DNA from: an uncultured Magnetococcales bacterium
Lineage (GTDB): Bacteria > Pseudomonadota > Alphaproteobacteria > UBA2136
DNA length: 64,000 nt
Assembly (NCBI GenBank): GCA_963974105.1
Contig: CAXBBG010000001.1
Coordinates: 445,256 to 509,255 of the forward strand
Direction: 5' to 3'
In this document: positions 9,064 through 48,778 of the stretch, in pieces
Position numbering within the stretch: the stretch's first letter is position 1
Layout: each line of letters starts with the position of its first letter
Translations under genes and position numbers: made by a program
The notes under the pieces: generated by a model
The model's database searches: none
What the model was told of the DNA's origin: nothing
The model's input: the letters and a program-made list of their open reading frames with translations, nothing else

Positions 9064-11565
<2,502 letters not shown>

Positions 11566-11637: not shown

Positions 11638-11670
11638 AAAAAAAACCCACACTCAAAGAATGTGGGTTGC
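11638..11670 (-). terminator. Rho-independent terminator after the PMM-like gene (minus strand)
   Basis: Minus strand reads CCCACATTCTTTGAGTGTGGG followed by TTTTTTTT. Confidence 0.65.
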
Positions 11671-11690: not shown

Positions 11691-12452
11691 TTAAATGGCA
11701 CATAAACCTTTCAAAATAGCCATTGTTTCATCGGGGTTTTTAACAGGTATGGTTTGGTTTTGAGTGCTTTCAGCTTTTAGCGCTTGAGCAAGTTCAAAAT
11801 CATTACCATTTTCATGCATTTGATCGCCAAAAAAGACGACGCTTTTATCGGAAATTTCACGTAGTTGATTTAAAACACTAGCCTTTGATAATTTCTTGTT
11901 AGAAAAATCAATGGTAGTTTTACCAAAAACTTGAAAATCTAGATTGGGTGTGTAATTGCAACAATTTAAAACGTTGCAAGCACGCATTAAGAAATTAGAT
12001 TTCTTGTTCCACTCAATAAAAGCTTCACGTTGTTCTGGTGTTGCATTTTGCCCCAAAGGGGTAAAGGCGCCAGTTGATGTACGCTTGATGATATGACCGC
12101 CTGTTTTGATAGGAAATTCACAACTTTCAAGTAAAGACTGTAAAAGGTCTTTTAAACCTTCTGGCCACGTGAATAGATGTTCAGCAATCACAGTGTGGTT
12201 GTGCACAACTTCCATGCCAAAGCAGCAAAAGCTATAAGCTTCGCTTAATATACTTTGTGGTATACGCTTTTCAAGATTTGCGTAGTCACGTGCAGTAGCA
12301 AAAGCAATGGTATAACCTTTGATGTTTTGGAGGTAGTCAAGTGTGTTACACATTTCGGCGCTTAAAGGCTGGCCCGAAGGTGCGATTGTTTCATCCATAT
12401 CAAACATTAAAATGTGTGATAAAGCGTTCGCTTTTTGGATTGAGAAATCCAT
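11691..12452 (-). CDS. HAD-IIB hydrolase of the eukaryotic-type phosphomannomutase (PMM/Sec53) family, paralog 1
   Basis: Has the DMDET HAD motif I, and a C-terminal FFGDQMHENGNDFELAQAL...PDETM block matching the PMM signature FFGD..GGND.E. It is clearly paralogous to 25086..25826, sharing motifs FTWPEGL, TGGH/TGDH and FFGD..GND. Confidence 0.6.
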   Translation of the reverse strand: MDFSIQKANALSHILMFDMDETIAPSGQPLSAEMCNTLDYLQNIKGYTIAFATARDYANLEKRIPQSILSEAYSFCCFGMEVVHNHTVIAEHLFTWPEGLKDLLQSLLESCEFPIKTGGHIIKRTSTGAFTPLGQNATPEQREAFIEWNKKSNFLMRACNVLNCCNYTPNLDFQVFGKTTIDFSNKKLSKASVLNQLREISDKSVVFFGDQMHENGNDFELAQALKAESTQNQTIPVKNPDETMAILKGLCAI

Positions 12453-12554: not shown

Positions 12555-13619
12555 TTAGTCGATATCTTTTTTGAAACTTCCGTCACATGCACAGAAGAAT
12601 TGTACATTTTGAAGTGATGTGAACATTTCCTTTTCTGTACCTGTGAGCCATATTTGACTGCCAAGCTGAATAAGAGCGCTAAAAAACCTTTCCTTTGTTT
12701 GGCTGTCAAGGTGCGCAGCCATCTCGTCTAAAAGTATAATAGGTGCTTCGCCTGTTTGTTGATGGGTTAGGCGGCTATTGGCTAAAAGTATTTCCAGTAT
12801 TGCGCGCTTGTGTTGCCCTGTCGATGTTTGGGATAGGTTGATATTTTCAGGTTGAAGAATACCTTCAACGTCGCTGCGGTGCGGGCCGAAATGGCTACTG
12901 CCAAAACGTCCGTCTCTTGTGCGGTTTTCGTATAATTTTTCTTGAATACTTTTTTTATCAACCTTCTCCATACGTTCAAATGACCCTGTGAGTTTAAGGT
13001 CAATTGCATCAAGATGGGTTTTAAGCATTTTTAAGTAATGGTTGCGAGACTGGCTGATAAGAAAAGCAAAATGAGAGGCTTGCTCTTCCTCTATATCAAT
13101 CCATGTTGTGGCGGCATTTTCTTTCAGTAATTTAAGGCGCGCTTTTAAATGATGTTTATAGCGGTTTAAATGTTGTGCATGTTGAGGAAAATGACCAAAA
13201 GCAAGGCGGTCTAAAAATTCGCGTCTTTGGCTGGCGCTATCCATAAATAACCTGTCCATTTTTGGCGTGAACCATAAAATATTACCAAGGTTTGAAAGCT
13301 CGGCCTGGGCTTTGGCTGCTTCGCCATTTATTTTAAGCTGGCGCTTCCCTTTTTGGTAAAGCATACCAACTGTATTTTCTTCATCTTTATTGTTGATGTT
13401 GCTATGCAGTGCCCATGTTTTTTCATGATGCTTTATATGGTCATCTAACTTGTGGCGGTGCATGCCGCTGCCAGGAGAAAGTAGAGATATAGCTTCAAGA
13501 ATACTTGTTTTACCAGCGCCATTTTCACCGTAAAGTGCCACAATAGGCGCGTTATCTAATTGCAGATGAGCGCTTTCTATATTGCGGAAGTTGGTAAGCT
13601 TTAAACTGGTGATTTTCAT
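12555..13619 (-). CDS. recF: DNA replication and repair protein RecF
   Basis: MKITSLKLTNFRNIESAHL...GENGAGKTSILEAI (Walker A) and an ABC-signature-like LLDE region, in the dnaN-recF-gyrB context. Confidence 0.9.
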   Translation of the reverse strand: MKITSLKLTNFRNIESAHLQLDNAPIVALYGENGAGKTSILEAISLLSPGSGMHRHKLDDHIKHHEKTWALHSNINNKDEENTVGMLYQKGKRQLKINGEAAKAQAELSNLGNILWFTPKMDRLFMDSASQRREFLDRLAFGHFPQHAQHLNRYKHHLKARLKLLKENAATTWIDIEEEQASHFAFLISQSRNHYLKMLKTHLDAIDLKLTGSFERMEKVDKKSIQEKLYENRTRDGRFGSSHFGPHRSDVEGILQPENINLSQTSTGQHKRAILEILLANSRLTHQQTGEAPIILLDEMAAHLDSQTKERFFSALIQLGSQIWLTGTEKEMFTSLQNVQFFCACDGSFKKDID

Positions 13620-24274: not shown

Positions 24275-24628
24275 ATGTCACAGCCGATGGAAATACGCCT
24301 TCGAAGCGATAAAAAAAATCTAAGTATTGCTTTTAGTGCGGGTGAAATTTATGAATTTAGTGCAGAGTTTTTGAGGGTAGAATCACCTTCCGCAGAAGTA
24401 AAAGGACACGGCGCTGATCCTAAGCGCATTATTGCTGGTAAGCAAGATGTTGCTATTAAAAACATTGAACCTGTGGGGCATTATGCCGTGAAGTTCGTCT
24501 TTAGTGATGGGCATGCTTCTGGGCTGTATACGTGGAGTTATTTAAAAGAGCTTGGGGCTGACAAAGAAGAAATTTGGCAGACTTATTTAGAGAATTTAAA
24601 AAAACTAAACTTAAAGAGAGAAAATTAA
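24275..24628 (+). CDS. DUF971 protein (gamma-butyrobetaine hydroxylase-like N-terminal domain)
   Basis: LSIAFSAGEIYEFSAEFLRVESPSAE...GHYAVKFVFSDGHASGLYTWSYL matches the DUF971 pattern. Confidence 0.55.
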   Translation: MSQPMEIRLRSDKKNLSIAFSAGEIYEFSAEFLRVESPSAEVKGHGADPKRIIAGKQDVAIKNIEPVGHYAVKFVFSDGHASGLYTWSYLKELGADKEEIWQTYLENLKKLNLKREN

Positions 24629-25084
24629 ATGTATAAAAAAATACTTATAGCTGTTTTGTTGCTTGCAACACCTGTACAAGCTTACGCAGAAGAAACTGGT
24701 GTGATACTGAAAAAAATGTGGGCACGTGCCACGGTTGCAGGCGCAAGTACGGGTGTGATTTACGGCATTATTGAAAATAAGTCAGGTAAAGATGATGCGC
24801 TTATCTCTGTTAGTACGCCTGTTTCTCGTATGGCAATGATTCATCGTACAACGATGAATGATGAAGGTATTATGAATATGAGTCATATGGAAAAAGTGGT
24901 TTTAAAAAATGATACTTTTGTTGTGATGGAGCCTGGTGACATTCACATTATGTTGATGGGATTAGAACAAAAATTAACAGATGGTTACGATATTCCTGTT
25001 AAGTTTGAATTTGAAAATTCGCCAGCGCAAAATATCCGTGTGAAGGTTTATCCTATTTCAACGACTTGGAAAAACGTAGAATAA
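24629..25084 (+). CDS. Periplasmic copper chaperone PCu(A)C (DUF461)
   Basis: Signal peptide plus Met/His-rich copper motifs (MWARAT..., HRTTMNDEGIMNMSHMEK, HIMLMGL). Confidence 0.6.
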   Translation: MYKKILIAVLLLATPVQAYAEETGVILKKMWARATVAGASTGVIYGIIENKSGKDDALISVSTPVSRMAMIHRTTMNDEGIMNMSHMEKVVLKNDTFVVMEPGDIHIMLMGLEQKLTDGYDIPVKFEFENSPAQNIRVKVYPISTTWKNVE

Positions 25085-25085
25085 G

Positions 25086-25826
25086 GTGGCTAGAATTATG
25101 TTTTATATTTATGATGTTGATATGACTTTAGCTGAGTCGGATTGCTGTATGACAGATGAAATGGCCGATGTTTTTCGCCAAGCTATGGCAGGGAAATCAT
25201 ATTTTTTCTGCTCTGGTAGTGCTTTGGATAAAATGAAACAGCAAATACCTGAAGATATCACAGAAAATGCGGCGGGACTTTTGCCAGTTATGGGTGGCGA
25301 GCTTTGGAAAAATGGTGAGTTGGTTTACAGACGTGAATTTACATGGCCAGAAGGTCTGCGTGAAGATTTAGAAGCCACGCTTGAGCAGAGTCAATATCCT
25401 GAGCGTACAGGTGACCATTTGCAAGACCGTAAAACAATGGTTTGCTTTTCCACAGTAGGTAAAGCTGCTGATATGCCGGCTCGTAAACGCTATGAAGCAT
25501 GGGAAGAGCAAAATCGCGAACGTGAAATTTTTGCGAAAGAATTGGCTGCAAAATATCCATCACTTCATTTTTCTATTGGCGGTAAAACATCGGTAGATAT
25601 TAGCGAGCATGGCAATGATAAATCTCAAGCACTTAAAGCTATGCGTGAATATTATGGTGATGAGCCTGTTATGTTTTTTGGGGATCGTATGTATGAAGGT
25701 GGGAATGACTATCCATTAAGCGAAGCTTTACGTTTAGAAAGCGCACAAAACGTAACTGTCCCGGTCCAAAACCCAGAAGATACGATGCGTAAACTACAAG
25801 AGTTACTTTTACAGAAAGTATCTTGA
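25086..25826 (+). CDS. HAD-IIB hydrolase of the eukaryotic-type phosphomannomutase (PMM/Sec53) family, paralog 2
   Basis: Has the DVDMT HAD motif I. The C-terminus (SLHFSIGGKTSVDISEHGNDKSQAL...FFGDRMYEGGNDYPLSEAL...PEDTM) aligns closely with eukaryotic PMM ([21 protein letters not shown]...YFFGDKTMPGGNDHEIF...PEDT). Confidence 0.65.
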   Translation: MARIMFYIYDVDMTLAESDCCMTDEMADVFRQAMAGKSYFFCSGSALDKMKQQIPEDITENAAGLLPVMGGELWKNGELVYRREFTWPEGLREDLEATLEQSQYPERTGDHLQDRKTMVCFSTVGKAADMPARKRYEAWEEQNREREIFAKELAAKYPSLHFSIGGKTSVDISEHGNDKSQALKAMREYYGDEPVMFFGDRMYEGGNDYPLSEALRLESAQNVTVPVQNPEDTMRKLQELLLQKVS

Positions 25827-25844
25827 ATATAAAGGAACTTTACA

Positions 25845-26735
25845 ATGCCTGTGATTGAAGCGATTAACGTTAAAAAGAATTTTGGTGATTTTCAGGCTGT
25901 AAAAGGCGTGTCGTTTAATGTTCCAAAAGGCACGTGTGTTGGTTTGCTTGGCCCAAACGGTGCGGGTAAAACCACCACGATGCGTATGATTATGGGCTTA
26001 AGTTCTTTAAGCGAAGGTTCTTTGAATGTCTTTGGCGTTCCTGTTGACAAGGTGTCGCGCGCAGAAAAAATGCGTATCGGTCTTGTGCCACAGGAAGATA
26101 ACTTAGACCCAGATTTGTCAGTTAGGCAAAATTTGGAAGTATATGGTAGTTACTTTGGTTTAAATAAGTCTTACGTTCAAGAAAGATCGGCTGAACTTTT
26201 AGAGTTTATGCAGTTGACGGAAAAATCAGACAACCGTGTAAACCACTTAAGTGGTGGTATGAAGCGCCGTCTTATTATTGCGCGCTCTCTTATTGCTAAC
26301 CCTGACTTTGTTATTTTAGATGAACCAACAACAGGGCTTGACCCTCAAGCGCGTGTGCTTATATGGAAAAGCTTGCTTAAGCTAAAAGAAGAGGGGAAGA
26401 CACTTCTTTTGACAACGCATTATATGGATGAAGCGCAGCGTCTATGCGACAACATTGTGATTGTTGATGGAGGTAAAGTATTAGATGAAGGTTCTCCAAA
26501 AGTGCTTATTTCAAAACATGTGAAGGACCATGTTTTTGAAGTGATGAAACCTGTGCCAGCAGATTTAAATTCAAGCAATATTGACCGTGAAGATATCGGT
26601 GACGCTGTTTTATTTTACGTTAACGATATGACTAAAATAAAAGACATGTTGTCAGAAGGTGTGACGTATACACACCGAGAGTCGAACCTAGAAGATGTAT
26701 TTTTACGTTTAACTGGGCATAAGTTGCGAGATTAA
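25845..26735 (+). CDS. ABC transporter ATP-binding protein (ABC-2/NodI-like exporter ATPase)
   Basis: Walker A GPNGAGKTT, signature LSGGMKRR and Walker B ILDEPTTGLD. Confidence 0.85.
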   Translation: MPVIEAINVKKNFGDFQAVKGVSFNVPKGTCVGLLGPNGAGKTTTMRMIMGLSSLSEGSLNVFGVPVDKVSRAEKMRIGLVPQEDNLDPDLSVRQNLEVYGSYFGLNKSYVQERSAELLEFMQLTEKSDNRVNHLSGGMKRRLIIARSLIANPDFVILDEPTTGLDPQARVLIWKSLLKLKEEGKTLLLTTHYMDEAQRLCDNIVIVDGGKVLDEGSPKVLISKHVKDHVFEVMKPVPADLNSSNIDREDIGDAVLFYVNDMTKIKDMLSEGVTYTHRESNLEDVFLRLTGHKLRD

Positions 26736-27518
26736 ATGTTGGGATCTTTTTTTTCATACACAAATATTCATGCGCTTATGGTGCGCTATTTTATGGAATA
26801 TCGCCAATTGGCAAAAGTGCTTTTGCTTGGTGACGTTTTAGAGCGCGTTATATTTTTTATTGCCTTTGGTTTTGGTCTTGGGCGTGCGGTGAATCAAATT
26901 GCAGGTGTTGATTATATGACCTTTTTAGCACCTGGTATTGCAGCGGGATCTGGCTTGTTTGTTATGTTGGCTGCAACAACTTATGGTGCACATAATCGCT
27001 ATTCTTCAGCACGTATTTGGCAAAGTTGGCTTGCGACACCTATTAAACTGCAAGACTTATTGTTTGCAGAGATATTATTTCCAAGTATAAGGGCGCTGCC
27101 TTCACTCCTTATTTTGTATATGGTGGCTTACGGTTTTGGAGCGATACCTTCTGTTTCTGGTGCGTTGTTAAGTATCCCTATTTTACTTTTAGCAAACCTT
27201 GTTTACGGGGTTATTACACTGGCCATGGCCGGGCTATTGGGTCGCTTGCTTTATTTTAAATATATTCAAAGTTTGTGGATTATGCCGATGTATCTTTTTA
27301 GTGGTGTTTTCTTTAATTTAGATGATGCGCCTGTTTGGTTAAGTGCTTTTGCACAAATATTTCCGCTCACGCATGTGCTTGAAATTGTAAGGCCAATGGT
27401 ACTTGGTCAAAACGTTGAATTGTTTGATGTTTTATCACGTTTATGTGTTTTATTTATTATATTTGTGATTGGTTTTTATTTTGCGTTTAAATTTTTTAAA
27501 CGTCGCTTGTTTGATTAA
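26736..27518 (+). CDS. ABC-2 type transporter permease
   Basis: 260 aa with six predicted TM helices and ABC-2 permease topology, directly downstream of the ATPase. Confidence 0.7.
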   Translation: MLGSFFSYTNIHALMVRYFMEYRQLAKVLLLGDVLERVIFFIAFGFGLGRAVNQIAGVDYMTFLAPGIAAGSGLFVMLAATTYGAHNRYSSARIWQSWLATPIKLQDLLFAEILFPSIRALPSLLILYMVAYGFGAIPSVSGALLSIPILLLANLVYGVITLAMAGLLGRLLYFKYIQSLWIMPMYLFSGVFFNLDDAPVWLSAFAQIFPLTHVLEIVRPMVLGQNVELFDVLSRLCVLFIIFVIGFYFAFKFFKRRLFD

Positions 27519-27530
27519 GGAGCTTGTTAT

Positions 27531-28316
27531 ATGACGCATTTTATTAAAACAGTTTTTGCTTTATGGAAAAGGCATTACTTTGTTTGGAAGAGTATGTTTT
27601 GGCCTTCTTTAACGTCAAATGTCTTTAACCCTTTATTGTTTTTATTTTCATTTGGTTTTGGTATGGGTTCTATTATTGAAACGATGGAAGTTGGCGGGCA
27701 ACAGGTTTCTTATATGTCTTATATTATTCCAGGTATGATGGCTTACAGTGGTATGTTTGCGGCTAGCTTTGAAACGAGTATTTCAGCCTTTGCGCGTAGT
27801 CATATGCAAAGTTACTGGGATCAGGTTTTGTCTACACCTGCAAGGCTTTATCATCTGTTATGGGCAGAGATTTTCTGGGCAACATCTAAATCTTTGTTCG
27901 CTGTGGTTTGTGTGATGGCTGTTGGTTACGGTTTCGGAAGTATTGATGCGGGTCTTAGTATTTTACTGGTATTACCTGTGATGGCATTGGGATGCTTGTG
28001 TTTTTCAGCTTGCGGTATGGTGGCCACTTCCTTGGCAAGAAGTTTTGATATGTTTAGTTACTTCTTTACCTTTTGGGTAACACCTATGTTTATTTTTAGC
28101 GGTGTTTTCTTTCCTGTCACGCGTTTTCCTGAAGCGGTGCAAAATTTTGCCTTTTGTCTGCCTATGACGCACCTTGTTGATATTGTACGTGTGATTAGTG
28201 CCGACTTGCCTTTTGATGGCTTAGCTATTTTTTATAAAATGGCATATCTTGTTATTTTAACGGCAGTCGCTTATAGTGTTGCTTACCATAAAATGAAGAA
28301 AAGAATTTTTGACTAA
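27531..28316 (+). CDS. ABC-2 type transporter permease (second, paralogous)
   Basis: 261 aa with the same TM pattern as the previous ORF (shared FSGVFF and THxxxIVR motifs). Confidence 0.7.
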   Translation: MTHFIKTVFALWKRHYFVWKSMFWPSLTSNVFNPLLFLFSFGFGMGSIIETMEVGGQQVSYMSYIIPGMMAYSGMFAASFETSISAFARSHMQSYWDQVLSTPARLYHLLWAEIFWATSKSLFAVVCVMAVGYGFGSIDAGLSILLVLPVMALGCLCFSACGMVATSLARSFDMFSYFFTFWVTPMFIFSGVFFPVTRFPEAVQNFAFCLPMTHLVDIVRVISADLPFDGLAIFYKMAYLVILTAVAYSVAYHKMKKRIFD

Positions 28317-29035
28317 TGTCTAAATTGATTGAAATTGTATTCGATACAGAAACAACAGGTTTTGACCCTAAAACTGGGGATAAAATTGTTGAAATCGGGG
28401 CGTTGCGTATTTACGATAAAATGCGTACGGACGACCCTGCCGATACATTTCATTTATTGGTAAACCCTGAGCGTGACATTCCTGAAGAGGTTGTAAAAGT
28501 TCACGGTATTACAAATGAAAAGGTTAAAGATTCCCCAGTTTTTTCTGAAATTGCAGATGACTTTTTAGCTTTTATTGGCGACGCGCCTCTTGTTGCGCAT
28601 AACGCGTCTTTTGATATGCGTTTTATCAATGCGGAATTAGAAGCGATTGGGCGAGAACCTTTAAATAACCCTGTGGTGGATACCCTTGCCATCGCGCGCC
28701 GTAAGTTCCCTGGTTCGCGCGCAACTTTGGACGCACTTTGTTCAAGGTTTGAAGTGGACTTATCTGTGCGCGTATTTCACGGAGCTTTGCTCGATTCACA
28801 ACTTTTGGCTGACGTATATTTACATTTATGTGGCGGTTTGCAACACGGTTTTTCATTGGCAAGTGAAACATATTCATCGGACGATGATATACAGTTAGAT
28901 GTATTATCATTGGTAGGCGATGTGCGTGAAGAGCGCCTTTTTCCTGTACCTGAAGATGAAGCAAAAGCACATGAAGCTTTTGTAGAAAAAGTGGGCGCTA
29001 GCCTATGGTTTGATGGTGAAAAATCTTCTGACTAA
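28316..29035 (+). CDS. dnaQ: DNA polymerase III epsilon subunit (3'-5' exonuclease)
   Basis: Exo I FDTETTG, Exo II HNASFD and Exo III HGALLDSQLLADVY motifs. Confidence 0.85.
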   Translation: MSKLIEIVFDTETTGFDPKTGDKIVEIGALRIYDKMRTDDPADTFHLLVNPERDIPEEVVKVHGITNEKVKDSPVFSEIADDFLAFIGDAPLVAHNASFDMRFINAELEAIGREPLNNPVVDTLAIARRKFPGSRATLDALCSRFEVDLSVRVFHGALLDSQLLADVYLHLCGGLQHGFSLASETYSSDDDIQLDVLSLVGDVREERLFPVPEDEAKAHEAFVEKVGASLWFDGEKSSD

Positions 29036-35963: not shown

Positions 35964-36947
35964 CTAGTTTTTATGCCATGTTTTATACCATGAAGCAAAG
36001 GCGCGTAAGCCATCTTCAAGGTCAGTATTTGGTTTATATCCAACGGCTGCTTCAAGTTTTTTAGTCGACGCATAGGTTTGATAAACTTCTGTTGGCGGCC
36101 AAGGCTGCAGGTCTAAAATAGCCTCTTTACCCAAAACTTTTTCCATGGTTTTAATGTATTCTAACAACTGCACAGGCTTACTGTTACCGATATTATAAAT
36201 TTCAGCAGGGATATCGAGCGTTGGTATGTGCCATAAAAGCCTAGTTACACCTTCTACAATATCGCCAACATATGTAAAATCACGCCATAAGTCGCCGTGG
36301 TTATAGACTTTAATTGGGTTGCCATTTAATATATTTTTAGCAAAAAGCATGGGGCTCATGTCAGGGCGGCCCCACTCACCATAAACTGTAAAGAAGCGTA
36401 AGCCACTACAGTTTAATTTAAACAAGTTGGCATATGTATGCGCCATCAGCTCGTTAGAACGCTTTGAGGCGGCGTATAAACTACGTGGATCGCATACTTC
36501 ATCCGTTTCTTCAAACGGTGTTTTTTCGTTACCGCCATAAACAGAGGATGAAGATGCATAAACAAGATGCTCAAACCCAAATTCACCTTCTTTAAGGTAA
36601 CGACAACATTCAAGCACATTCACAAAGCCAACCATATTGCTTTGCGCATAACTACCTGGATTTTCTAGGCTGTAACGTACACCGGCTTGTGCGGCTAAGT
36701 TTATGACATGGCTTGGTTTGTATTGCTCAAAGACAGCCTTTAATGCGTCCATGTTTGCAATATCAACCTTGTGAAAGTGAAAGTTATTATGTTCTAAGCG
36801 CTCCAGGCGTGCTTTTTTAAGAGATACGTCGTAATAGTCGTTGAGACAATCAACGCCGATGACAGTATGTCCTTCGCTTAAGAGTTTAAGAGATGTTGCG
36901 CATCCAATAAACCCAGCCGCACCTGTAATAAGAACCACCTTAGACAT
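35964..36947 (-). CDS. UDP-glucuronate 4-epimerase (NAD-dependent SDR; Gla/Cap1J/WbnF-like)
   Basis: MSKVVLITGAAGFIGCATSLKLL...NDYYDVSLKKARLERL...NLAAQAGVRYSLENP closely matches known UDP-GlcA 4-epimerases. The start ATG overlaps the ugd stop. Confidence 0.8.
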   Translation of the reverse strand: MSKVVLITGAAGFIGCATSLKLLSEGHTVIGVDCLNDYYDVSLKKARLERLEHNNFHFHKVDIANMDALKAVFEQYKPSHVINLAAQAGVRYSLENPGSYAQSNMVGFVNVLECCRYLKEGEFGFEHLVYASSSSVYGGNEKTPFEETDEVCDPRSLYAASKRSNELMAHTYANLFKLNCSGLRFFTVYGEWGRPDMSPMLFAKNILNGNPIKVYNHGDLWRDFTYVGDIVEGVTRLLWHIPTLDIPAEIYNIGNSKPVQLLEYIKTMEKVLGKEAILDLQPWPPTEVYQTYASTKKLEAAVGYKPNTDLEDGLRAFASWYKTWHKN

Positions 36948-38290
36948 TAAGCTACCTTTTCAGAGTTGTTTTGATTTAAAACACGTGGGCGGCCAATGCA
37001 AACGTAGTTAATACCTTTTTTCGCCATTTCTTCAGGGTCAAACAAGTTGCGTAAGTCTACAATTGTATTGGTTGTTGTAGAGGCTGCAACCGCACCTGTA
37101 TCCATTTCTTTAAACTCTGCCCATTCTGTTAAAATAAGCGCTATGTCTGCACCTTCTAAGGCTTCGTCTTTACTGTCTACAACGTTTAAGCTTGGTAAAC
37201 GCCATGTTGCTTGTTCTTTCGCTTCTGGGTCATAAGCTTTAAGAATAGCACCCTCTTTTTCAAGTTCAGATAAAATAGTAAGGGACGGCGCATCACGCAT
37301 GTCATCTGTATCTGCTTTAAAAGCTAAGCCTAAAACGGCAACTTTTTTACCTTTAACAGAGCCGCCCAGCGCACTAACTACTTTTGCAGCAAGGCGTTTT
37401 TTAATTTCTTCATTGGCTTTTATGGTTTGTTCAACAACCGTTTGCTTGATGCCTGATTCTACACCTTGGAAGGCAAGCGCGTTTGTATCCTTAGGAAAAC
37501 ATGAACCACCGTAACCAGGGCCAGGTTGTAAGAATTTTGAACCAATACGACTATCAAGGCCAATACCCTTACTTACATTCATCACGTCGGCGCCTACTTT
37601 TTCACATAGAGCAGCGATTTCGTTTATAAAGGTAATTTTTGTAGCAAGGAAGGCATTGGCAGCGTATTTAATAAGCTCAGAAGATTCACGGTTTGTAATG
37701 AGAAGTGTGTAACCTTCATCTGTTTGTGGCTTGTAAATAGCGCGCATAATATTAGCTGATTTTTCATTCGGGCAACCAACAACAATACGGTCAGGTTTCA
37801 TAAAGTCATCAAGGGCAGCACCTTCACGCAAAAATTCGGGGTTTGAACAAACGTCAAATTCAGCATCAGTTACTTCTTTCATACGTGCTTCAACGCGTAC
37901 ACCTGTACCCACAGGAACAGTTGATTTATTTACAATAACAGTATAGCCCGTTAAGTATTTTGCAATATCTGCAGAGGCCTGTAAAACATACTGCATGTCT
38001 GCACTACCATCTTCGTCTTGTGGTGTGCCAACGGCAATAAAAACAGCGTCTGAATCTGGAATACATGTTGAGAGGTCTGTTGTAAAGTGCAGACGACCTG
38101 CCTTTTGGTTACGTGCAACCATTTCGTCAAGGCCTGGTTCATAAATTGGGATAATGTTTTCTTCTTTGAGTTTGCGGATTTTTTCTGCGTCAATGTCAAC
38201 GCAGGTTACATCCATACCCATTTCAGAGAAGCACGTGCCGCTGACTAGACCTACATAGCCTGTTCCAATTACTGTAATGCGTGGTGTCAT
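36947..38290 (-). CDS. ugd: UDP-glucose 6-dehydrogenase (nucleotide-sugar dehydrogenase family)
   Basis: ITVIGTGYVGLVSGTCFSEMG...IPIYEPGL, the catalytic Cys region GGSCFPKD, and the C-terminal UDP-binding domain. Confidence 0.85.
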   Translation of the reverse strand: MTPRITVIGTGYVGLVSGTCFSEMGMDVTCVDIDAEKIRKLKEENIIPIYEPGLDEMVARNQKAGRLHFTTDLSTCIPDSDAVFIAVGTPQDEDGSADMQYVLQASADIAKYLTGYTVIVNKSTVPVGTGVRVEARMKEVTDAEFDVCSNPEFLREGAALDDFMKPDRIVVGCPNEKSANIMRAIYKPQTDEGYTLLITNRESSELIKYAANAFLATKITFINEIAALCEKVGADVMNVSKGIGLDSRIGSKFLQPGPGYGGSCFPKDTNALAFQGVESGIKQTVVEQTIKANEEIKKRLAAKVVSALGGSVKGKKVAVLGLAFKADTDDMRDAPSLTILSELEKEGAILKAYDPEAKEQATWRLPSLNVVDSKDEALEGADIALILTEWAEFKEMDTGAVAASTTTNTIVDLRNLFDPEEMAKKGINYVCIGRPRVLNQNNSEKVA

Positions 38291-38323
38291 GTGTTTATTC
38301 CTTATTTCGTAATGTTCTAAAAG

Positions 38324-39205
38324 TTATAGACCAAGTTTTTTGATGTAATCTTTAAGCAGTGGTCCAATATATTTATCTTTAAGGGCGAAGTATATGTTAG
38401 CTTGTTGAAAGCCAACTTTATCACCACAGTCAAAGCGTTGACCGTTTAAAATATAACCGTAAAATGCTTCTTTTTGAAGCAATGAGTCCATGGCATCTGT
38501 CAGTTGAATTTCGCCACCATGACCAGGTTTTGTTGTTTCTAGTTCTTTAAAGATACTGGCATTAAAAACGTAACGCCCCGTTACCGCAAGTGTTGATGGT
38601 GCGTTTTCTGGTGCAGGTTTTTCAACAAAGCCATGCGCACGTACTTTACGACCATCAAGCTTTTCGTTTTTAATGTCTAAAATACCGTAATTTTTTGTAC
38701 GATCTTTTTCAACATTCATGGTTAGCACAACGTTACCGTTTGTGCGGTCGTGAATTTCTATCATTTTTTGTAGTGCATTTTCTTCGTCAGAGTAAATAAT
38801 ATCATCAGGAAGAAGGACAGCAAACGGTGCGTCGCCGATAATAGATTTAGCCTGTAAAACAGCATGGCCTAAACCTAAAGGTGCGCCTTGCCTTGTGTAA
38901 TAAGCACGGCAATGTGGCGGTAAGATACTTGTAACAGATTCGAGCTCTTTGAGTTTCCCTTTTTTTTCAAGCATGTCGACGAGTTCGTAAGGTTTATCGA
39001 AATGATTTTCAATAGCAGATTTACCACGGCCTGTTACAAAGACAAACTCTTCAATACCAGCTTCTAATGCCTCTTCAACAACGTACTGAATAATTGGTTT
39101 ATCAACCACAGTTAGCATTTCTTTTGGCATGGCTTTGGTTGCAGGTAGGAAGCGTGTTCCAAGCCCAGCTACTGGTAAAACGGCTATACGTACTTTTTGA
39201 CTCAT
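38324..39205 (-). CDS. galU: UTP--glucose-1-phosphate uridylyltransferase
   Basis: VAGLGTRFLPATKAMPKEML...DKPIIQY is the GalU signature. 293 aa. Confidence 0.85.
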   Translation of the reverse strand: MSQKVRIAVLPVAGLGTRFLPATKAMPKEMLTVVDKPIIQYVVEEALEAGIEEFVFVTGRGKSAIENHFDKPYELVDMLEKKGKLKELESVTSILPPHCRAYYTRQGAPLGLGHAVLQAKSIIGDAPFAVLLPDDIIYSDEENALQKMIEIHDRTNGNVVLTMNVEKDRTKNYGILDIKNEKLDGRKVRAHGFVEKPAPENAPSTLAVTGRYVFNASIFKELETTKPGHGGEIQLTDAMDSLLQKEAFYGYILNGQRFDCGDKVGFQQANIYFALKDKYIGPLLKDYIKKLGL

Positions 39206-39223
39206 TTCTAAATCCTTTTAATT

Positions 39224-41116
39224 TTAGTCATTTTCACTATCATTTAAAGCCTGATACGGACTGTTATGTGATGGTTGATACTCTTTTACAAGTTCTTTTA
39301 ATGTTTGAACAGCAAGAAATTCATTTTGTTGCTGGCAAGCAGCTTCAATTGCAGCTACTTTTTCTTGAGTTTCCTTTTTGGAGAGGCTGTTAGGATTTAC
39401 AAGAAATGTTTTTTCCATGTCTGTTTTTTCCATGCCTTCTTCATTGTACCACAGCTCTTCAAAAAGCTTTTCGCCAGGGCGAAGACCTGTAATCTCAATA
39501 TCAATATCTTCATAAGGCGTTAAACCGCTCAGGCGGATCATCTGCTCAGCAAGGTGCACAATTTTAACACTTTCACCCATATCAAGCATAAACAAATTAC
39601 CACCATGCCCTTTTGCCGCAGCCTGTAGAATAAGCTGTGATGCTTCGGGTATGGTCATAAAGTAACGTGTGGCATCTTTATGGGTTACAGTTAAAGGACC
39701 TCCTTCAATAATTTGTTTTGTAAAAAGAGGGATAACCGAACCGTTAGATCCTAAAACATTACCAAACCTCACAGCTATAATGTCTGTAGATGTATCTTTT
39801 GAAGCGCCTAAGCTATACATTTCTGCGGCACGTTTTGTAGCACCCATCACATTGGTTGGGTTAACAGCTTTGTCGGTTGAAACTATCACCATTTTAGGTA
39901 CGCCAGCTTCAATGGCAGCATTTGTTAAAGTCATTGTACCTAGTAAATTATTTTCAATGCCAGAAATAGGGTTTGCTTCTATCATTGGCACATGTTTATA
40001 AGCGGCGGCGTGAAATATAATGCTAGGCTTGTGTTCTTTTAAAACATTGTTTATGTCGTCTTTATTTTTGATGTCTACTAAAATGCTAGTGCGTTTTATT
40101 TTAGGGTATTTTTTATAAAATTCCATATCAACATGATAAAGAGCGTCTTCGCTGTGATCAAGCAAGAGCATATGTTCTGGGTTATGTTTGACAATTTGTC
40201 TGCAAAGCTCGCGTCCGATAGAGCCACCTGCTCCTGTCACAAGAATTGTTTTATTATTTAATAAATCTGCAATAGAAGAATTGTCTAACTCAACAGTATC
40301 GCGCCCTAAAAGGTCTTCAATTAACACCGGTTTAAGGTCTGTTAATTTATTGCCGTCTTTTAGGTTCGATATTGTAGGTATGCGTTTAACAATTATATTT
40401 TGAGCTGCCGCAATGTCTATGATTTTTTTAAGTACCTCGCCCTTAGCTTCGGCAATGATAAACATTTTCACAGGGAAGCCTTTTTTATCGAGTGAGAGAA
40501 GTGTTTTGGCAAGGTTGTCTAAGGCGCTTAAAACAGGGATACCATGGAAAAGGCGCCCTTTTTGATTATTATCTTCGTCAATTGCGCCAACAATATTAAA
40601 ACGCATTGGTTTTTGACGACGGTTTTCACGCACAAATAAATCGGCTGCATCGTTTACACCGATCAATAAAACATTTTCTTGTGACTTGTGTGAGTTCAGT
40701 GCCGTTTGAAAAACTTTATCATGCCAGAGTCTTAAGAATATACGCGGGCTTGCAGAGACGGCAATTTGCAATAAAGGTAGAATAATAAAGACACTGCGTG
40801 GGAAGTTTTCAAAACCAAGCGTTGTTGATAATATAAAGCCACCAGCAGCTATGGCAAAGACGGTGGCATAGCAAAAGCGCATAAGGTCGCGTGCTGTGGT
40901 ATAGCGCCATATGTTTTTATGCAGGTTAAAGTATACGTAGAAAGCTGCGCATATTACCATGTATACAAGACTGTATATCGTAAATAAAGATATGTTCTGG
41001 CTTGGTATATTGAAGTCATATCTCAGTAAAATGGCACACATCAAAGAAATACCCGCCACAAAGGTGTCAAAAGCTATTGAAATTGCAGGTTTGATAAAGT
41101 GTTTTACGTGAATCAC
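39224..41116 (-). CDS. Membrane-bound UDP-N-acetylhexosamine 4,6-dehydratase (WbpM/PglF/CapD family)
   Basis: Four N-terminal TM helices, a central Rossmann-like domain, and a C-terminal SDR dehydratase domain (VTGAGGSIGRELCRQI...YKHVP). Confidence 0.8.
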   Translation of the reverse strand: MIHVKHFIKPAISIAFDTFVAGISLMCAILLRYDFNIPSQNISLFTIYSLVYMVICAAFYVYFNLHKNIWRYTTARDLMRFCYATVFAIAAGGFILSTTLGFENFPRSVFIILPLLQIAVSASPRIFLRLWHDKVFQTALNSHKSQENVLLIGVNDAADLFVRENRRQKPMRFNIVGAIDEDNNQKGRLFHGIPVLSALDNLAKTLLSLDKKGFPVKMFIIAEAKGEVLKKIIDIAAAQNIIVKRIPTISNLKDGNKLTDLKPVLIEDLLGRDTVELDNSSIADLLNNKTILVTGAGGSIGRELCRQIVKHNPEHMLLLDHSEDALYHVDMEFYKKYPKIKRTSILVDIKNKDDINNVLKEHKPSIIFHAAAYKHVPMIEANPISGIENNLLGTMTLTNAAIEAGVPKMVIVSTDKAVNPTNVMGATKRAAEMYSLGASKDTSTDIIAVRFGNVLGSNGSVIPLFTKQIIEGGPLTVTHKDATRYFMTIPEASQLILQAAAKGHGGNLFMLDMGESVKIVHLAEQMIRLSGLTPYEDIDIEITGLRPGEKLFEELWYNEEGMEKTDMEKTFLVNPNSLSKKETQEKVAAIEAACQQQNEFLAVQTLKELVKEYQPSHNSPYQALNDSEND

Positions 41117-41119
41117 TGG

Positions 41120-42121
41120 TTATTTTCCTTCTAGGTAGCGTATGCGGACGGCTACACTTGCCAGTATAACAAGTGTTATAATAAATAGCGGCATGCCAAG
41201 GTGGGTGAGATGCGCTAAAAGGGCAAAAATCATAAAGAGAAGGTTTAGCACAATGACACGCTTTACAACATCCTCATGGCTCATGCCTACTAAAACAGCG
41301 CGTTGATAAAAATGTTCCTTATGAGCTTGCCATGGTTTTTTGCCATTAAAGGCGCGCTTGATAAGGGTAAATGTGGCATCCACAACAAACACGCTGGTGA
41401 TAATGAGCCCCACCCAAATTTCACCCACAAAGTTAAATTGTAAGTTATAAATAAATAAACCACCTAAAACGAAGCCAAGGTATGTACTGCCAACGTCGCC
41501 CATAAAGATACGGGCAGGGTGCCAATTGAAACGTAAAAAACCAACCATGCAACCAATTATAACAAGCATGATAGGCTTTATTTCAGGCAACAAAATACTC
41601 AACATAAATGCTAGTATAGCTGCCTGAGTTGCCGCAATCCCATCAATGCCATCCATAAAATTGTAAAGGTTTAAAAACCAAACCCAAGCTAAAACAATCA
41701 AAACTTTTTCAATCCAAAAAGGTATAAGACCACCTGACAAGACAGGCAACATAAAGGTGCATATACTTACCATAGCTATATGACAGCTCAAACGCAAAAG
41801 AGGGTTAATATTATGATTGTCATCAAGCCAACCAAGATATGAAATGAAAATGCCACCTAAGAAGAGGGTGTTTAAAAAGCTTAAGTGTGCGCTTGGCTCA
41901 CCTATGTTTAACCAAATTAAAGCGAATATAGAAATAACATTTACAAAACTGTAGCCACCGCCACGAGGTGTTGGCTGTTTATGTGAGCTACGTTTTGTGA
42001 CTTGATCATAAAGTCCTTTGTTAATGCAATGGCGCATGGCTTTACCCGCATAAATAGTGCTAAATGCAAATGCTATAACGACGTATAGGCAGTCCATGGC
42101 ATTGTTAAGAAAATATTCCAA
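41120..42121 (-). CDS. Undecaprenyl-phosphate HexNAc-1-phosphate transferase (WecA/WbpL, MraY-like GT4)
   Basis: Multi-pass membrane protein with MraY/WecA motifs (NLYNFMDGIDGIAA, FMGDVGS). Confidence 0.75.
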   Translation of the reverse strand: MEYFLNNAMDCLYVVIAFAFSTIYAGKAMRHCINKGLYDQVTKRSSHKQPTPRGGGYSFVNVISIFALIWLNIGEPSAHLSFLNTLFLGGIFISYLGWLDDNHNINPLLRLSCHIAMVSICTFMLPVLSGGLIPFWIEKVLIVLAWVWFLNLYNFMDGIDGIAATQAAILAFMLSILLPEIKPIMLVIIGCMVGFLRFNWHPARIFMGDVGSTYLGFVLGGLFIYNLQFNFVGEIWVGLIITSVFVVDATFTLIKRAFNGKKPWQAHKEHFYQRAVLVGMSHEDVVKRVIVLNLLFMIFALLAHLTHLGMPLFIITLVILASVAVRIRYLEGK

Positions 42122-42133
42122 ATTTTTATACCT

Positions 42134-43069
42134 TTAAGTATTTAAGCTTTTTATGAGTTGCTGTATACCTGTTTTAAAGCTTTTTGGTTTAAAATCAAAG
42201 TCTTTTTGTGCTTCTGCATGACTAAAGTCTTTATTCTCGTTCAAACGCAGTAATTGTTCGCCCTTAATTCTTGGTTTATTCGCCAACCATTCGTATGGTT
42301 TGAGCAACCACAAACAAGGCGTTAACGGGATAGATATTATTCTTGTTTTATGCCCAGATTCTTCACAGATTGTACGTACTATATCTTTGAAAGTTAATGG
42401 TTTTTCGCCGCTAATATTATATATTTTATTTTTAGAATGTGGGCTGAAATAAGCGCCAATGAGCGCACTTGCTACATCATCAACGTGGTTAGGCTGTTGT
42501 AATGAATTAGCCGAGCCTGGTACAAATAAAAATGGCCATTTTTGTATATATTTCAACAACCTTTCCATGTTTCTATCGCCCTTTAGGCCATAGATCATGG
42601 TTGGGCGTACAATGGTCCAATTTAAAAGTTTAGAATTTGATATGGTTTTTTCAGCCGCCAAACGCACTTTTTTTGAACTGGCATTAAGCTTTGTAAGAAG
42701 GGCTGTGGTGCTGGTAAAAACACATTTTTTAATCCCCATTTCTTCACAGGCAGTTACAATGTTTCCTGCGTGCCCAAACCCTAAAGATGCAACGTAAATC
42801 ATACCATCTTTACCGCTTAATGCGGCTTTAATGCTTTCAATATCATTTAGATCACCACGTACAATTGTACAATGCCCCGTGTTAATTTCAGGCGCTGTGC
42901 TGTGAGGTCTAAGCATACAAGTTATTTGCACGTCGTCACGTACGTTAAGTTGGTTTAAAACACGACCCCCAGTAAAACCTGTTGACCCAATGAGTAATAT
43001 ATTTTGTTTTGACTCTTTTTTCATGGCGGTAGTATAGCGAATCCCGCTTAAGAGTGCAAAGGTTGACAC
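42134..43069 (-). CDS. NAD-dependent nucleoside-diphosphate-sugar epimerase/reductase (SDR)
   Basis: N-terminal GSTGFTGGRVL Rossmann motif and SDR architecture (WbpV/WbpK-like). Confidence 0.55.
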   Translation of the reverse strand: MSTFALLSGIRYTTAMKKESKQNILLIGSTGFTGGRVLNQLNVRDDVQITCMLRPHSTAPEINTGHCTIVRGDLNDIESIKAALSGKDGMIYVASLGFGHAGNIVTACEEMGIKKCVFTSTTALLTKLNASSKKVRLAAEKTISNSKLLNWTIVRPTMIYGLKGDRNMERLLKYIQKWPFLFVPGSANSLQQPNHVDDVASALIGAYFSPHSKNKIYNISGEKPLTFKDIVRTICEESGHKTRIISIPLTPCLWLLKPYEWLANKPRIKGEQLLRLNENKDFSHAEAQKDFDFKPKSFKTGIQQLIKSLNT

Positions 43070-43093
43070 ATAATAAAAATGACGTATTTTAAA

Positions 43094-44359
43094 TTAAAGT
43101 TTTTCTTTGTGTATTTGGATGGATTTATTGAATATGGACACATACTTTTGAGCAAGCAGGCTATGGCAATAATGCTCGCGTACAAATTTACGCCCTGCAA
43201 TACCCATAGACTCTGCTTTAGCAGGGTTTTCTATAAGTTTTTTGAGTTCTTTTGCTAATATTTCAGGTTGTTCTGGCGGGCAAATAATAGCGCTTTGGCT
43301 GGCACGCAGTATATCTGCAGCTTCTCCATCAAGCATAGCCACAGTGGGTTTTTCGCTGGCCATAATTTCAAACATTTTGGATGGAATGAATGTTTTAAAA
43401 CCAGGGGTGTCTTTAAGAGGGATAAAACAGGCATATGAAAGGTTGTAAAATGTCCATACACGTTCTTTGTCTTGTGCAGGTAAAAACTGAACGTTTGGCA
43501 TGCCCTTAGAGAGGTTTTCTAATCTTTCTTTGTCAGCGCCACCGCCTACAAATAAAAATAAAACGTCGCTTTGGTTTATCATGATACGTGCAGCATCAAT
43601 AATTTGGCCAAGAGCTTGAGATGAACCATGCGTACCAATGTAAAGAAGTACTTTTGTTTGACCTGTAAGCTGTAACTCGCCTTGCAAGCTACTCACCATA
43701 CCGTTTTCTTTTGGTTGGGTCGCTACTTCTAGTTCTTGGTCGTCTACACCATTGGTGATTACGTATAGTTTTGTTGGGTCTATGCCGCGCGAGGCAATAT
43801 CCTTTGCAAAACCTTTAGTGACTGTAACAACAGAAGCTGCGCGCCTGTATAAAAATAGCTCAAGCATTTCAATTGTTTTGAGTAACGTTTCATTTTTAAT
43901 AGTACCAAGCTCCTTAAAAATACCGGGCCAAAGATCGCGCACTTCAAAAACAAAGGGAACGTTCATTTTTTTAGCGAGTAACCATGCGCTGATCACAGCA
44001 AAAAATGAAGGTGAGCTCACCATAATAACATCAGGCTTTTCCAAGACTGTTTTTGCGTGATGCCTTTTTAAGACGTTCCATGCAAATGAAAGATGTGACA
44101 ATGTTTTTTTAATAAACCCATCATTTTTAGTCACATAAAACTTGTGCCTTGCGACAGTGAAGTTATCCATATTTTCAGTACTAAATTTAGGATAATTTTC
44201 ATACCCTTTCATGAACTCGCCAACAGGGTGGTTAGGAACGCTGGTTAAAATAGTGACGTTTTGACCTTGTTTAACCCACGCTTTTGCAAGGCCGTGTAGC
44301 CGCGCAGATGGCGCACCTGGTTCAGGTTTGAAATATTGACAGATAACCCATATGTTCAT
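43094..44359 (-). CDS. Glycosyltransferase family 1 (GT4; WbuB-like)
   Basis: GT-B architecture with the C-terminal GT1 EX7E region (ENLSKGMPNVQFLP...E.M); similar to WbuB-type L-FucNAc/HexNAc transferases. Confidence 0.65.
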   Translation of the reverse strand: MNIWVICQYFKPEPGAPSARLHGLAKAWVKQGQNVTILTSVPNHPVGEFMKGYENYPKFSTENMDNFTVARHKFYVTKNDGFIKKTLSHLSFAWNVLKRHHAKTVLEKPDVIMVSSPSFFAVISAWLLAKKMNVPFVFEVRDLWPGIFKELGTIKNETLLKTIEMLELFLYRRAASVVTVTKGFAKDIASRGIDPTKLYVITNGVDDQELEVATQPKENGMVSSLQGELQLTGQTKVLLYIGTHGSSQALGQIIDAARIMINQSDVLFLFVGGGADKERLENLSKGMPNVQFLPAQDKERVWTFYNLSYACFIPLKDTPGFKTFIPSKMFEIMASEKPTVAMLDGEAADILRASQSAIICPPEQPEILAKELKKLIENPAKAESMGIAGRKFVREHYCHSLLAQKYVSIFNKSIQIHKEKL

Positions 44360-44370
44360 GTGTTTATTTT

Positions 44371-45447
44371 CTATTTTTGTGTATTTATAAGCTCTAACTT
44401 TTCACCAGAGGTAAAGGTAATGGCCTTAATATAGTGGTTGATAACAAGGTCTGTATTGTTTGCTTTAAAGATAATGTCATCATTCGCGCTGAGAGGGTTC
44501 ATAGCCATTGGCCATGACTTTTCCACAATATCACCGACACTCATTATGTCTGTATCTTTAATTGTTACTGTACGTAAGGCTTTCCCATCCTTATCCATAA
44601 AGCTTACCTCTGCGTGGAAATCTTGAATATCTTCTTCACCAGTATTTTCAAATTCTATACGTAATAAAACGCGCTTTCCGCCAAATTCATTTGGTGCAAC
44701 GCCTGAAGATTTTTCAATACTGCGCACGCTTAAAGCGTTTTCCATTCTTGCTAAAATTTCTTTATTTTTAGCGTTTATTATTTTGATACGCAAAGTGTCG
44801 AGTTGTTTAAGTGTGTGACCAAGGTCTTCTACCCCTACAACCTTCCAACCCGATTCTTTTTTAATAAGATTGATTTTTATAGAAGAGCTGAAGTCTAGGT
44901 CTTTACGATAAAAGTTAAAGCTGGTGTGCGCTTTTTCACCGTTCTCTACTGTATCGGTTAAGCCTTTAAAAACAAATTCTTCACCTGCAAGGTCATACCA
45001 TATTTTTTGTAACATAGGTGTGCGGCCATACAAATTTGTAATGTCATATTTTTCAGAAAATGCGCCTTTTTTAACATATTCCAAAATTTGGTTGTTCAGG
45101 CTGTTTGCAAGCTCTGGTTTGATATAGCCTGTGAGTCGGTTACTTAAAGAGTCTCCCAATGTTTTAACCGCACCCCAAAAACCAGTTTCTTCAGTTTGTG
45201 CTGTATCATCTTCTTCAAATACTTCAGTTAAAATGTTTTCTGCAAACAGTTTTGTGTCGACATATTTTTGAAATTTTTCTAGGTCTTGGTTTTGTAAGGC
45301 TTGTAGAGCTAATTCAACAGCGTAAGATGCAGAGTTTAATTTTTGATTTTGATTGTAGGTGTAAAAACCAAAAAGGGCACCTAAGAGGGTTAAAATAAGT
45401 ATAATAACAATGAAGAGATTTTGACGCGAAAATTTAAACATGTTCAA
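44371..45447 (-). CDS. Hypothetical membrane-anchored protein inside the polysaccharide cluster
   Basis: N-terminal TM helix and a 330-aa extracytoplasmic part with no recognisable domain. Confidence 0.3.
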   Translation of the reverse strand: MNMFKFSRQNLFIVIILILTLLGALFGFYTYNQNQKLNSASYAVELALQALQNQDLEKFQKYVDTKLFAENILTEVFEEDDTAQTEETGFWGAVKTLGDSLSNRLTGYIKPELANSLNNQILEYVKKGAFSEKYDITNLYGRTPMLQKIWYDLAGEEFVFKGLTDTVENGEKAHTSFNFYRKDLDFSSSIKINLIKKESGWKVVGVEDLGHTLKQLDTLRIKIINAKNKEILARMENALSVRSIEKSSGVAPNEFGGKRVLLRIEFENTGEEDIQDFHAEVSFMDKDGKALRTVTIKDTDIMSVGDIVEKSWPMAMNPLSANDDIIFKANNTDLVINHYIKAITFTSGEKLELINTQK

Positions 45448-45452
45448 ACCTT

Positions 45453-47195: not shown

Positions 47196-47254
47196 TTCTG
47201 CACAAAAAAGCCCTCTTGTAAAGGAGGGCTTTTAATAAAGGCTAAATCCTATAT

Positions 47255-48613: not shown

Positions 48614-48778
48614 TCGTTCATACCTATAAAAGTTGAGTTCAATTTTATATATTATTATATATTTAGCTAATATAGCTTACGTGTACTTTATGGGTTGATG
48701 CAAAAGAAGATGTGTTTTTATTCCTGAATTGGCGCATCTACCTTTGTGTGCCATGGTAGATGTGCAACATAAAATGTC

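Follow-up and report, generated by a model that had tools for sequence, protein, structure and literature searches.

How a bacterial chromosome came to carry two genes for HAD proteins resembling eukaryotic phosphomannomutases (PMMs), and what these proteins do, was examined in a stretch of 64,000 nucleotides (hereafter, the window) from an uncultured bacterium labelled Magnetococcales and placed by GTDB in UBA2136 (assembly GCA_963974105.1, contig CAXBBG010000001.1, positions 445,256 to 509,255). The two genes are designated par1 and par2. A preliminary description based on the sequence alone had proposed either horizontal acquisition, possibly from a eukaryotic host, or an under-described bacterial branch of the family. 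The latter alternative proved correct, though the branch was already known in principle from the alpha-phosphoglucomutase (APGM, PgmH; PDB 4BND) of Lactococcus lactis and is very large. In the overall reading favoured here, which is considered rather probable, par1 and par2 encode Mg2+-dependent HAD-IIB phosphotransferases with a PMM-type cap and form an old, vertically inherited duplicate pair, in which par2 would be a mutase and par1 an altered form.

Both open reading frames (ORFs) were confirmed beside the neighbours named in that description, par1 between recF and gyrB and par2 upstream of ABC-2 exporter genes (Table 1). The par2 gene is real, but its start was misplaced. The earlier GTG codon at 25086 (246 aa) falls within a Shine-Dalgarno-like AGGTGG, 8 nt 5' of the ATG at 25098, and this ATG (MFYIYDVD...) begins par2 in the database gene call and in every ortholog; therefore, it was taken as the start. 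The two proteins share 32% identity over 237 aligned residues (E 7e-46), which excludes chance similarity and bears out the paralogy proposed for them. The motifs DMDET (par1) and DVDMT (par2), FTWPEGL, TGGH/TGDH, and FFGD..GND were confirmed in the sequences. The last motif, listed as P.DTM for both, is exact only in par2 (PEDTM); par1 has PDETM, a minor misreading. The alignment claimed between the C-terminal block of par2 and human PMM2 was also confirmed; overall, the two proteins are 27% identical (E 8e-25).

Profile, sequence, and structure comparisons place par1 and par2 specifically in the PMM-type HAD-IIB family. Against the Pfam profile PF03332 (PMM), with a gathering cut-off of 22.4 bits, they scored 50.8 and 79.1 bits, respectively. 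In a PDB sequence search, the best match of par1 was a PMM (7myv, E 1.9e-17), and par2 matched PMMs at E 3e-19; all significant full-length matches of both were PMM1, PMM2, protist or fungal PMMs, or 4BND. The family assignment made earlier thus holds. The AlphaFold2 models had predicted local distance difference test (pLDDT) values of 95.0 (par1) and 95.2 (par2). When both models were compared with the PDB using Foldseek, the top 24 chains were all PMM1, PMM2, or APGM (E 1e-22 to 1e-17, template modelling (TM) score ~0.8), followed at E 1e-12 to 1e-11 by trehalose-6-phosphate phosphatases, ISN1 nucleotidases, and Cof-type proteins. A PMM-type alpha/beta cap between motifs II and III is present in both models, and PMM structures are the closest overall fold. 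NCBIfam assigned the proteins no further than HAD-IIB, and the generic Hydrolase_3 profile (PF08282) scored par1 at 46.7 bits, nearly equal to its PF03332 score. An identity as Cof-type phosphatases, named in the preliminary description as the assignment that would speak against PMM affinity, was ruled out by TIGR00099 (Cof) scores of 45.2 bits for par1 and 24.4 bits for par2, far under the cut-off of 137, and by Foldseek matches 10 orders of magnitude weaker than those to PMMs.

The alignments show that both paralogs have kept the catalytic HAD core intact. Residues are numbered according to human PMM2, the sequence of which is identical to residues 3-248 of PDB 7O0C. Positions D12, D14, T16, R123, K189, D209, N216, and D217 showed no variation in either paralog family or across the 42 aligned homologs; the catalytic residues of par1 are D18, D20, T22, K190, D210, N217, and D218. 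Motif I reads D18-M-D20-E-T22 in par1 and D6-V-D8-M-T10 in par2. The motif III lysine (K189) and motif IV, GDx4-5GGNDxE (D209, N216, D217), are kept in both families, and R141, S/T179, and D181 are likewise retained in both paralogs. At motif II (PMM2 S47), par2 has S41 within an invariant SGS; par1 has an arginine aligned with S47 and a threonine two positions upstream (F-A-T-A-R), giving a Cof-like T-x-R (cf. T-G-R).

Both genes are inherited vertically in an uncultured marine lineage, the metagenome-assembled genomes (MAGs) of which are labelled Magnetococcales, Alphaproteobacteria, or UBA2136. Orthologs of par2 (46-79% identity) were found in seven GTDB species representatives, in MAGs labelled Alphaproteobacteria, Magnetococcales, Proteobacteria UBA2136, or Pseudomonadota. 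Six of the seven (L002-L004 and L006-L008) keep the block DUF971-PCuAC-par2-ABC ATPase-ABC-2 permease(s)-RNase_T exonuclease; in L007 (5190-9113), one of these six, it persists at 46% par2 identity although the flanking genes differ. The block represents a conserved gene order for which no functional rationale was found. In the window, the six-gene block (24275-29035, plus strand) has almost no intergenic space. Orthologs of par1 (48-53% identity) occupy the order dnaA-dnaN-recF-par1-gyrB, with the par1 ORF intact, in each contig read (four further ones: L001, L009, L011, and L013). Orthologs of both genes occur on contigs of 806,207 bp and likewise 43,290 bp, probably on the same contig. The par2 orthologs (75-78% identical) are conserved to the same degree as their neighbours (73-84%), whereas the par1 orthologs (48-51%) change faster than RecF (58-67%), DnaN (86-88%), and GyrB (77-88%); par1 evolves about twice as fast.

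The relationship between the paralogs was assessed with a hidden Markov model (HMM) of the par1 family, in which 25 par2-family proteins ranked first with 150-176 bits; the median scores of other homologs, eukaryotes, and APGM were 103, 70, and 57 bits, respectively. In addition, FxWPEGL is common only to par1, par2, and their nearest relatives. The profile scores and the common motif make it most likely that par1 is a duplicate from the par2 lineage that has diverged, a conclusion drawn with moderate confidence.

The proteins belong to a large bacterial and phage branch of the PMM/alpha-phosphoglucomutase family. A profile search of 1.84 billion cluster representatives from genomes and metagenomes (clusters at 50% identity) yielded 5143 clusters at E<=1e-3, of which 883 reached E<=1e-30. 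With more than 5000 clusters and with L. lactis PgmH already characterised, the rarity implied by the preliminary description was overstated. Members of the intermediate group with readable context were mostly phage, and of the relatives that could be placed, in other bacteria and in marine phages, the closest in sequence outside the lineage are phage proteins with 30-44% identity. Among them, P0076 (44% to par2) is flanked by a terminase and an SU10-type portal and belongs to a module of a phosphomannose isomerase (PMI)-like protein, a mutase, and a nucleotidyltransferase; it too has C128, lacks R21, and carries the AL+AES insertion. P0054 is situated between Gp23, UvsY, and UvsW; P0047 near a T4 gp59 homolog and a heme oxygenase; and P0073 on a 211-kb contig carrying topoisomerase and RNA ligase genes. 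The PMM-like gene was also found in the cyanophages S-SSM7, S-SSM6a, and P-TIM68, and the family is carried by at least 571 IMG/VR contigs. The corresponding phage family, PHROG 29277, is listed as 'unknown function' and scored par1 at 88 and par2 at 139 bits, above their PF03332 scores. A further relative, P0071 (42% to par2; L105:6001-6735), comes from a cellular contig, where its neighbours are RuBisCO genes, MnmA, and an Rrf2 regulator. Its sequence mixes a par1-like N-terminus (DVDET, 'PSG') with a par2-like C-terminus, and it may help to date the duplication.

The phage relatives also bear on function at the level of the family. In 46 of 80 loci, their gene directly adjoins one for an RfaE-domain-II/TagD-like nucleotidyltransferase, and at least 15 of the 80 also encode a small ManC-PMI-like cupin nearby, the cupin of L023 matching the ManC mannose-6-phosphate isomerase domain at E 5e-30. 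The arrangement looks like a phage-encoded nucleoside diphosphate (NDP)-hexose pathway. Since a cupin-HAD-nucleotidyltransferase module makes sense only with the PMM-like protein acting as a sugar-phosphate mutase, it argues for a mutase role within the family. In another phage-like contig, with ClpP, Cpn60, NUDIX, and a PMI-like cupin nearby, the 344-aa protein P0040 (L018:6001-7035, L019:6001-7035) has a PMM-family domain fused to a C-terminal domain of ~100 aa that matches PF26761 'Acb5' and PHROG 7499.

With regard to origin, two other histories were considered. In the first, a eukaryotic PMM (Sec53/PMM2) would have been acquired horizontally, for instance from a host, and later duplicated; this history was rejected on identity, clade support, and profile ranking and is hardly credible. 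PF03332 is named 'Eukaryotic phosphomannomutase' and the top PDB matches are eukaryotic PMMs, which reflects what was crystallised and what seeded the model. The PMMs of human, Candida, Trypanosoma, and Plasmodium are 49-57% identical to one another but only 21-28% identical to par1 and par2, and they form a clade with 100% bootstrap support in neighbour-joining (NJ) trees, outside which both proteins fall. A eukaryote-PMM profile scored the intermediate phage and bacterial group at up to 166 bits, above par2 (91-97) and par1 (59-71). No true eukaryotic PMM occurred among the best 150 matches of the family profile search, which are 30-40% identical to par2 and equally to eukaryotic PMMs, and the phage PHROG outscores PF03332 for both proteins (88 and 139 vs 51 and 79 bits). 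Moreover, both genes reside in conserved housekeeping synteny across the free-living marine MAGs of the lineage, which speaks against recent acquisition of any kind. Entry from marine phages followed by domestication, one copy settling between recF and gyrB, is unlikely on balance but carries appreciable weight; it is compatible with the mutase reading of function and differs on origin only. The nearest homologs outside the lineage with readable context are mostly phage-borne, as in the case of P0076 and of P0054, P0047, P0040, and P0073 on T4-like or phage-like contigs, and the presence of the family in cyanophages (S-SSM7, P-TIM68) and in IMG/VR fits this history. In addition, the recF-gyrB adjacency broken by par1 is widespread in bacteria. 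However, the par2 family itself was not found in IMG/VR, where its relatives are only 30% identical; the close relative P0071 is on a cellular contig; the NJ trees give no direction, from phage to cell or from cell to phage; and the GC content of both genes equals that of their surroundings (~0.39-0.40).

As for function, par2 is predicted to be a housekeeping hexose-phosphate mutase (alpha-phosphoglucomutase (PGM) and/or PMM), a role considered fairly probable. By the mechanism of the PMM family, the first aspartate of DxDxT (D6 in par2, D18 in par1) would be phosphorylated by a hexose 1,6-bisphosphate, and a hexose monophosphate would accept the phosphate on its free hydroxyl. The intermediate, a bisphosphate, would then turn under the closed cap, held by the motif III lysine and by cap residues equivalent to PMM2 R123, R134, and R141, and the other phosphate would return to the aspartate, interconverting sugar-6-phosphate and sugar-1-phosphate. 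In the cell, par2 would supply hexose-1-phosphate to nucleotidyltransferases such as GalU, encoded 12.5 kb away, from which UDP-glucose, then UDP-glucuronic acid, and then surface polysaccharide would be formed. GalU was identified with TIGR01099 (342.5 bits, cut-off 326.8) and adjoins Ugd; the Ugd region scored 442 bits with the nucleotide-sugar dehydrogenase profile TIGR03026. The GalU/Ugd cluster implies a demand for glucose-1-phosphate. With regard to the GDP-mannose route suggested earlier, no alpha-D-phosphohexomutase, manC, or PMI was found among the annotated ORFs of the window, whereas galU is present. A phosphomannomutase function as such appears overstated.

The specificity of par1 has probably changed. 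The substitutions R21 to G and R134 to Q/E, the Cof-like T-x-R motif II, and the fast evolution suggest a different substrate or a phosphatase activity, with a roughly even split between a mutase for another sugar phosphate and a sugar (bis)phosphate phosphatase. A further-reaching proposal, that phage-related HAD-type mutases took over the hexose-1-phosphate supply from the classical phosphohexomutases in this lineage, as in Lactococcus, and that par1, fixed within the dnaA-dnaN-recF-gyrB cluster and lacking two phosphate-binding arginines, gained a new activity (on another sugar phosphate or in control of the bisphosphate activator), is doubtful. The L. lactis PgmH is reportedly a HAD-type enzyme that serves as the alpha-PGM of the cell. 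A comparable case is Trypanosoma brucei, which has no PGM gene and in which a HAD-type PMM and PAGM substitute (PMC3465800).

Several observations weigh against the reading of the two genes as a duplicate pair of the mutase type. The NJ trees (Kimura and Scoredist distances) do not unite par1 and par2 but join par1 to APGM with 52-64% bootstrap support. We attribute this grouping to long-branch attraction; it is contradicted by the par1-family HMM, which ranks par2 first and APGM last, and on this ranking an APGM-type identity of par1 was rejected. Without APGM, the nearest clade to par1 was par2-like in 78 of 100 replicates, with the point estimate joining par1 to P0083. Both paralogs are 25-26% identical to L. 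lactis APGM, compared with 33-35% for the APGM-type proteins P0064 and P0065, and the APGM profile scored par2 at ~100 and par1 at ~65 bits. The full substrate-binding set of PMM2 (R21, R123, N128, R134, R141, S179, D181) is not retained, three positions being replaced: position 21 by D/S in par2 and G in par1, position 128 by C and A, and position 134 by K in par2 and by Q or E in par1, with Glu in half of the par1 family. In PMM2, K189 binds one phosphate of the bisphosphate and R134 with R141 the other, R21 and R141 clasp the closed enzyme, and the R141H variant is nearly inactive (PMC4263888). Changes at the distal phosphate site can thus matter, R141H alone nearly abolishing PMM2 activity, and R134 is altered in both paralogs. 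The replaced contacts weaken the naming of par1 and par2 as phosphomannomutases, not their family membership. Nor do they exclude mutase chemistry, because L. lactis APGM has K21, A128, Q134, and K141; this protein, PgmH, is said to have been described by Neves et al. in 2006 as a genuine alpha-phosphoglucomutase. In genomic context, no nucleotidyltransferase or isomerase was found beside par1 or par2 in the lineage, and nothing about the genes around par2, which encode a copper chaperone, a DUF971 protein, an ABC-2 transporter, and an exonuclease, suggests a part in sugar metabolism. The rest of the genome may well encode a classical PGM, ManB, or GlmM, in which case par1 and par2 would contribute non-essential side activities.

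That both proteins are phosphatases, PMM-fold HAD-IIB enzymes hydrolysing a sugar phosphate, a sugar bisphosphate, or a nucleotide, is rather unlikely. Models for such a shift are mammalian PMM1, which acts as an inosine monophosphate (IMP)-stimulated glucose-1,6-bisphosphate phosphatase, and the related ISN1 IMP nucleotidases. The R21 'clasp' is gone from both paralogs and R134 is altered in both; L. lactis APGM, a mutase, nevertheless also has Q134, K21, and K141, and par2 retains K134, R141, R123, S179, and D181, so that a distal phosphate site is plausible. For par1, the T-x-R motif II, the Hydrolase_3 score approaching that of PF03332, ISN1 IMP nucleotidases as the next structural matches after PMM/APGM (E 1e-12), and the location within a DNA-replication gene cluster favour hydrolysis; on the other side, the close phage relative P0076, with no R21 and with C128, belongs to a module that requires a mutase step. 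A very improbable alternative is that par1 is a decaying or non-catalytic duplicate (pseudo-enzyme), as might be supposed from its outpacing every neighbour and from the loss of several substrate contacts. Against this, its catalytic residues are all invariant over eight orthologs that are ~50% identical, the ORF is intact in each contig, the AlphaFold model has a pLDDT of 95, and motifs of the par1 family, such as WNK+(S/T)N and AFG.T(S/T)ID, are conserved. The interpretation of par2 as a mutase and par1 as an altered but catalytic paralog is preferred.

Comparison with known systems places the pair as follows. The eukaryotic PMM2, PMM1, and Sec53 (PF03332; 2AMY, 7O0C, 2FUE) agree with par1 and par2 in the fold of the HAD-IIB core and cap (Foldseek E 1e-22 to 1e-19, TM 0.75-0.85), in length (~245 aa), in motifs I, III, and IV, and in the residues R123, R141, S179, D181, and K189. 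In contrast to them, par1 and par2 fall outside their clade at the low identity given above, have R21, N128, and R134 replaced, read DMDET and DVDMT instead of DVDGT, carry 5-6 inserted residues (AL+xES..N) ahead of the last strand as well as the clade-specific FxWPEGL, and have no GDP-mannose pathway genes nearby. The L. lactis PgmH is likewise a bacterial protein of ~250 aa with the PMM fold and supplies glucose-1-phosphate in place of a classical PGM, a precedent for the role predicted for par2. It has Q134 and A128 as in par1 but represents a different subfamily, with K21 and K141; in par1 and par2, position 21 is G or D/S, respectively, and position 141 is R. Unlike par1 and par2, most phage PMM-like proteins (PHROG 29277) have R21, N128, R134, and R141 all intact as in PMM2, and they stand mostly beside a nucleotidyltransferase with or without a PMI-like cupin, whereas par1 and par2 are chromosomal, in housekeeping synteny, without such partners. 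Cof-type HAD-IIB proteins (TIGR00099/PF08282) belong to the same superfamily and cap class and resemble the N-terminal core of par1 with its T-x-R motif II. The alpha-D-phosphohexomutases ManB, AlgC, and Pgm (PF02878-80, PF00408) carry out what is presumed to be the same net reaction, hexose-6-phosphate to hexose-1-phosphate and back via a bisphosphate, with a fold unrelated to PMM and a phosphoserine mechanism (PMC3465800).

The features at and around the two genes are listed in Table 1. Other than the hairpin that follows par1, promoter and terminator scans gave no more matches than chance; the hairpin suggests that recF-par1 transcription may end before gyrB, though as weak evidence, with one site found against 1.3 expected by chance.

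Table 1. Coordinates and characteristics of par1, par2, their neighbours, and related loci.
Feature	Coordinates	Strand	Characteristics
par1	11691..12452	-	253-aa PMM-family HAD-IIB protein, fast-evolving paralog
par2	25098..25826	+	242-aa PMM-family HAD-IIB protein, conserved paralog
recF	12555..13619	-	Upstream co-directional neighbour of par1; SMC_N / RecF-type product in L001, L009, L011, L013
gyrB	9064..11535	-	Downstream of par1; from translation; HATPase_c, DNA_gyraseB, and Toprim in orthologous loci
Terminator-like hairpin	11644..11668	-	11-bp stem and T-run just past the par1 stop; consensus scan
DUF971 (GBBH-like_N) and PCuAC copper chaperone	24275..25084	+	Abut par2 upstream; Pfam; start of conserved block
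NodI/DrrA-like ABC ATPase, two ABC-2 (NodJ-like) permeases, RNase_T-family exonuclease	25845..29035	+	Pfam and NCBIfam (below equivalog cut-offs)
NAD-dependent sugar epimerase/dehydratase-family protein, UDP-glucose 6-dehydrogenase, GalU (38324..39205)	35964..39205	-	Glucose-1-phosphate-consuming; would be the likely users of the product of a hexose-phosphate mutase
Phage module: cupin, PMM-family HAD, nucleotidyltransferase	L014:5669-7126, L023:5654-7123, L024-L103		IMG/VR loci, T4-like and SU10-like marine phages

The galU region is part of a surface-polysaccharide cluster (35964-49969, minus strand), which encodes the epimerase/dehydratase-family protein, UDP-glucose 6-dehydrogenase, GalU, a PglF/CapD-like 4,6-dehydratase, a WecA-like phosphotransferase, a second epimerase-like protein, a GT4 glycosyltransferase, NhaA, and WecB. 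It also contains a 358-aa ORF without a Pfam match (44371-45447) and a heparinase II/III-like protein (45453-47195). Elsewhere in the window, a 980-aa GAF-PAS-GGDEF-EAL signalling protein (54894-57836, plus strand), a biopterin-dependent aromatic amino acid hydroxylase (57861-58646, plus strand), and a 490-aa fatty-acid-desaturase-family protein (60909-62381, minus strand) were found.

The main value of these results is corrective: the Pfam name prompts a reading of horizontal transfer from a host that is unsupported by the data here. Membership is new for these genes, and the family itself is known; it has many bacterial members and occurs very frequently in marine phages. Of the by-products, the most interesting is found beyond the window: the widespread phage module of PMI-like, PMM-like, and nucleotidyltransferase genes. 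For the organism, par1 and par2 are candidates for the step feeding GalU/Ugd and surface-polysaccharide synthesis. If complete genomes of the lineage lacked a classical PGM/PMM, this would represent a second independent case, after Lactococcus, in which a central sugar-phosphate mutase was replaced by a non-orthologous enzyme, and the altered cap positions 21, 128, and 134 would then help to locate the determinants of specificity in a medically relevant family (the congenital disorder of glycosylation PMM2-CDG).

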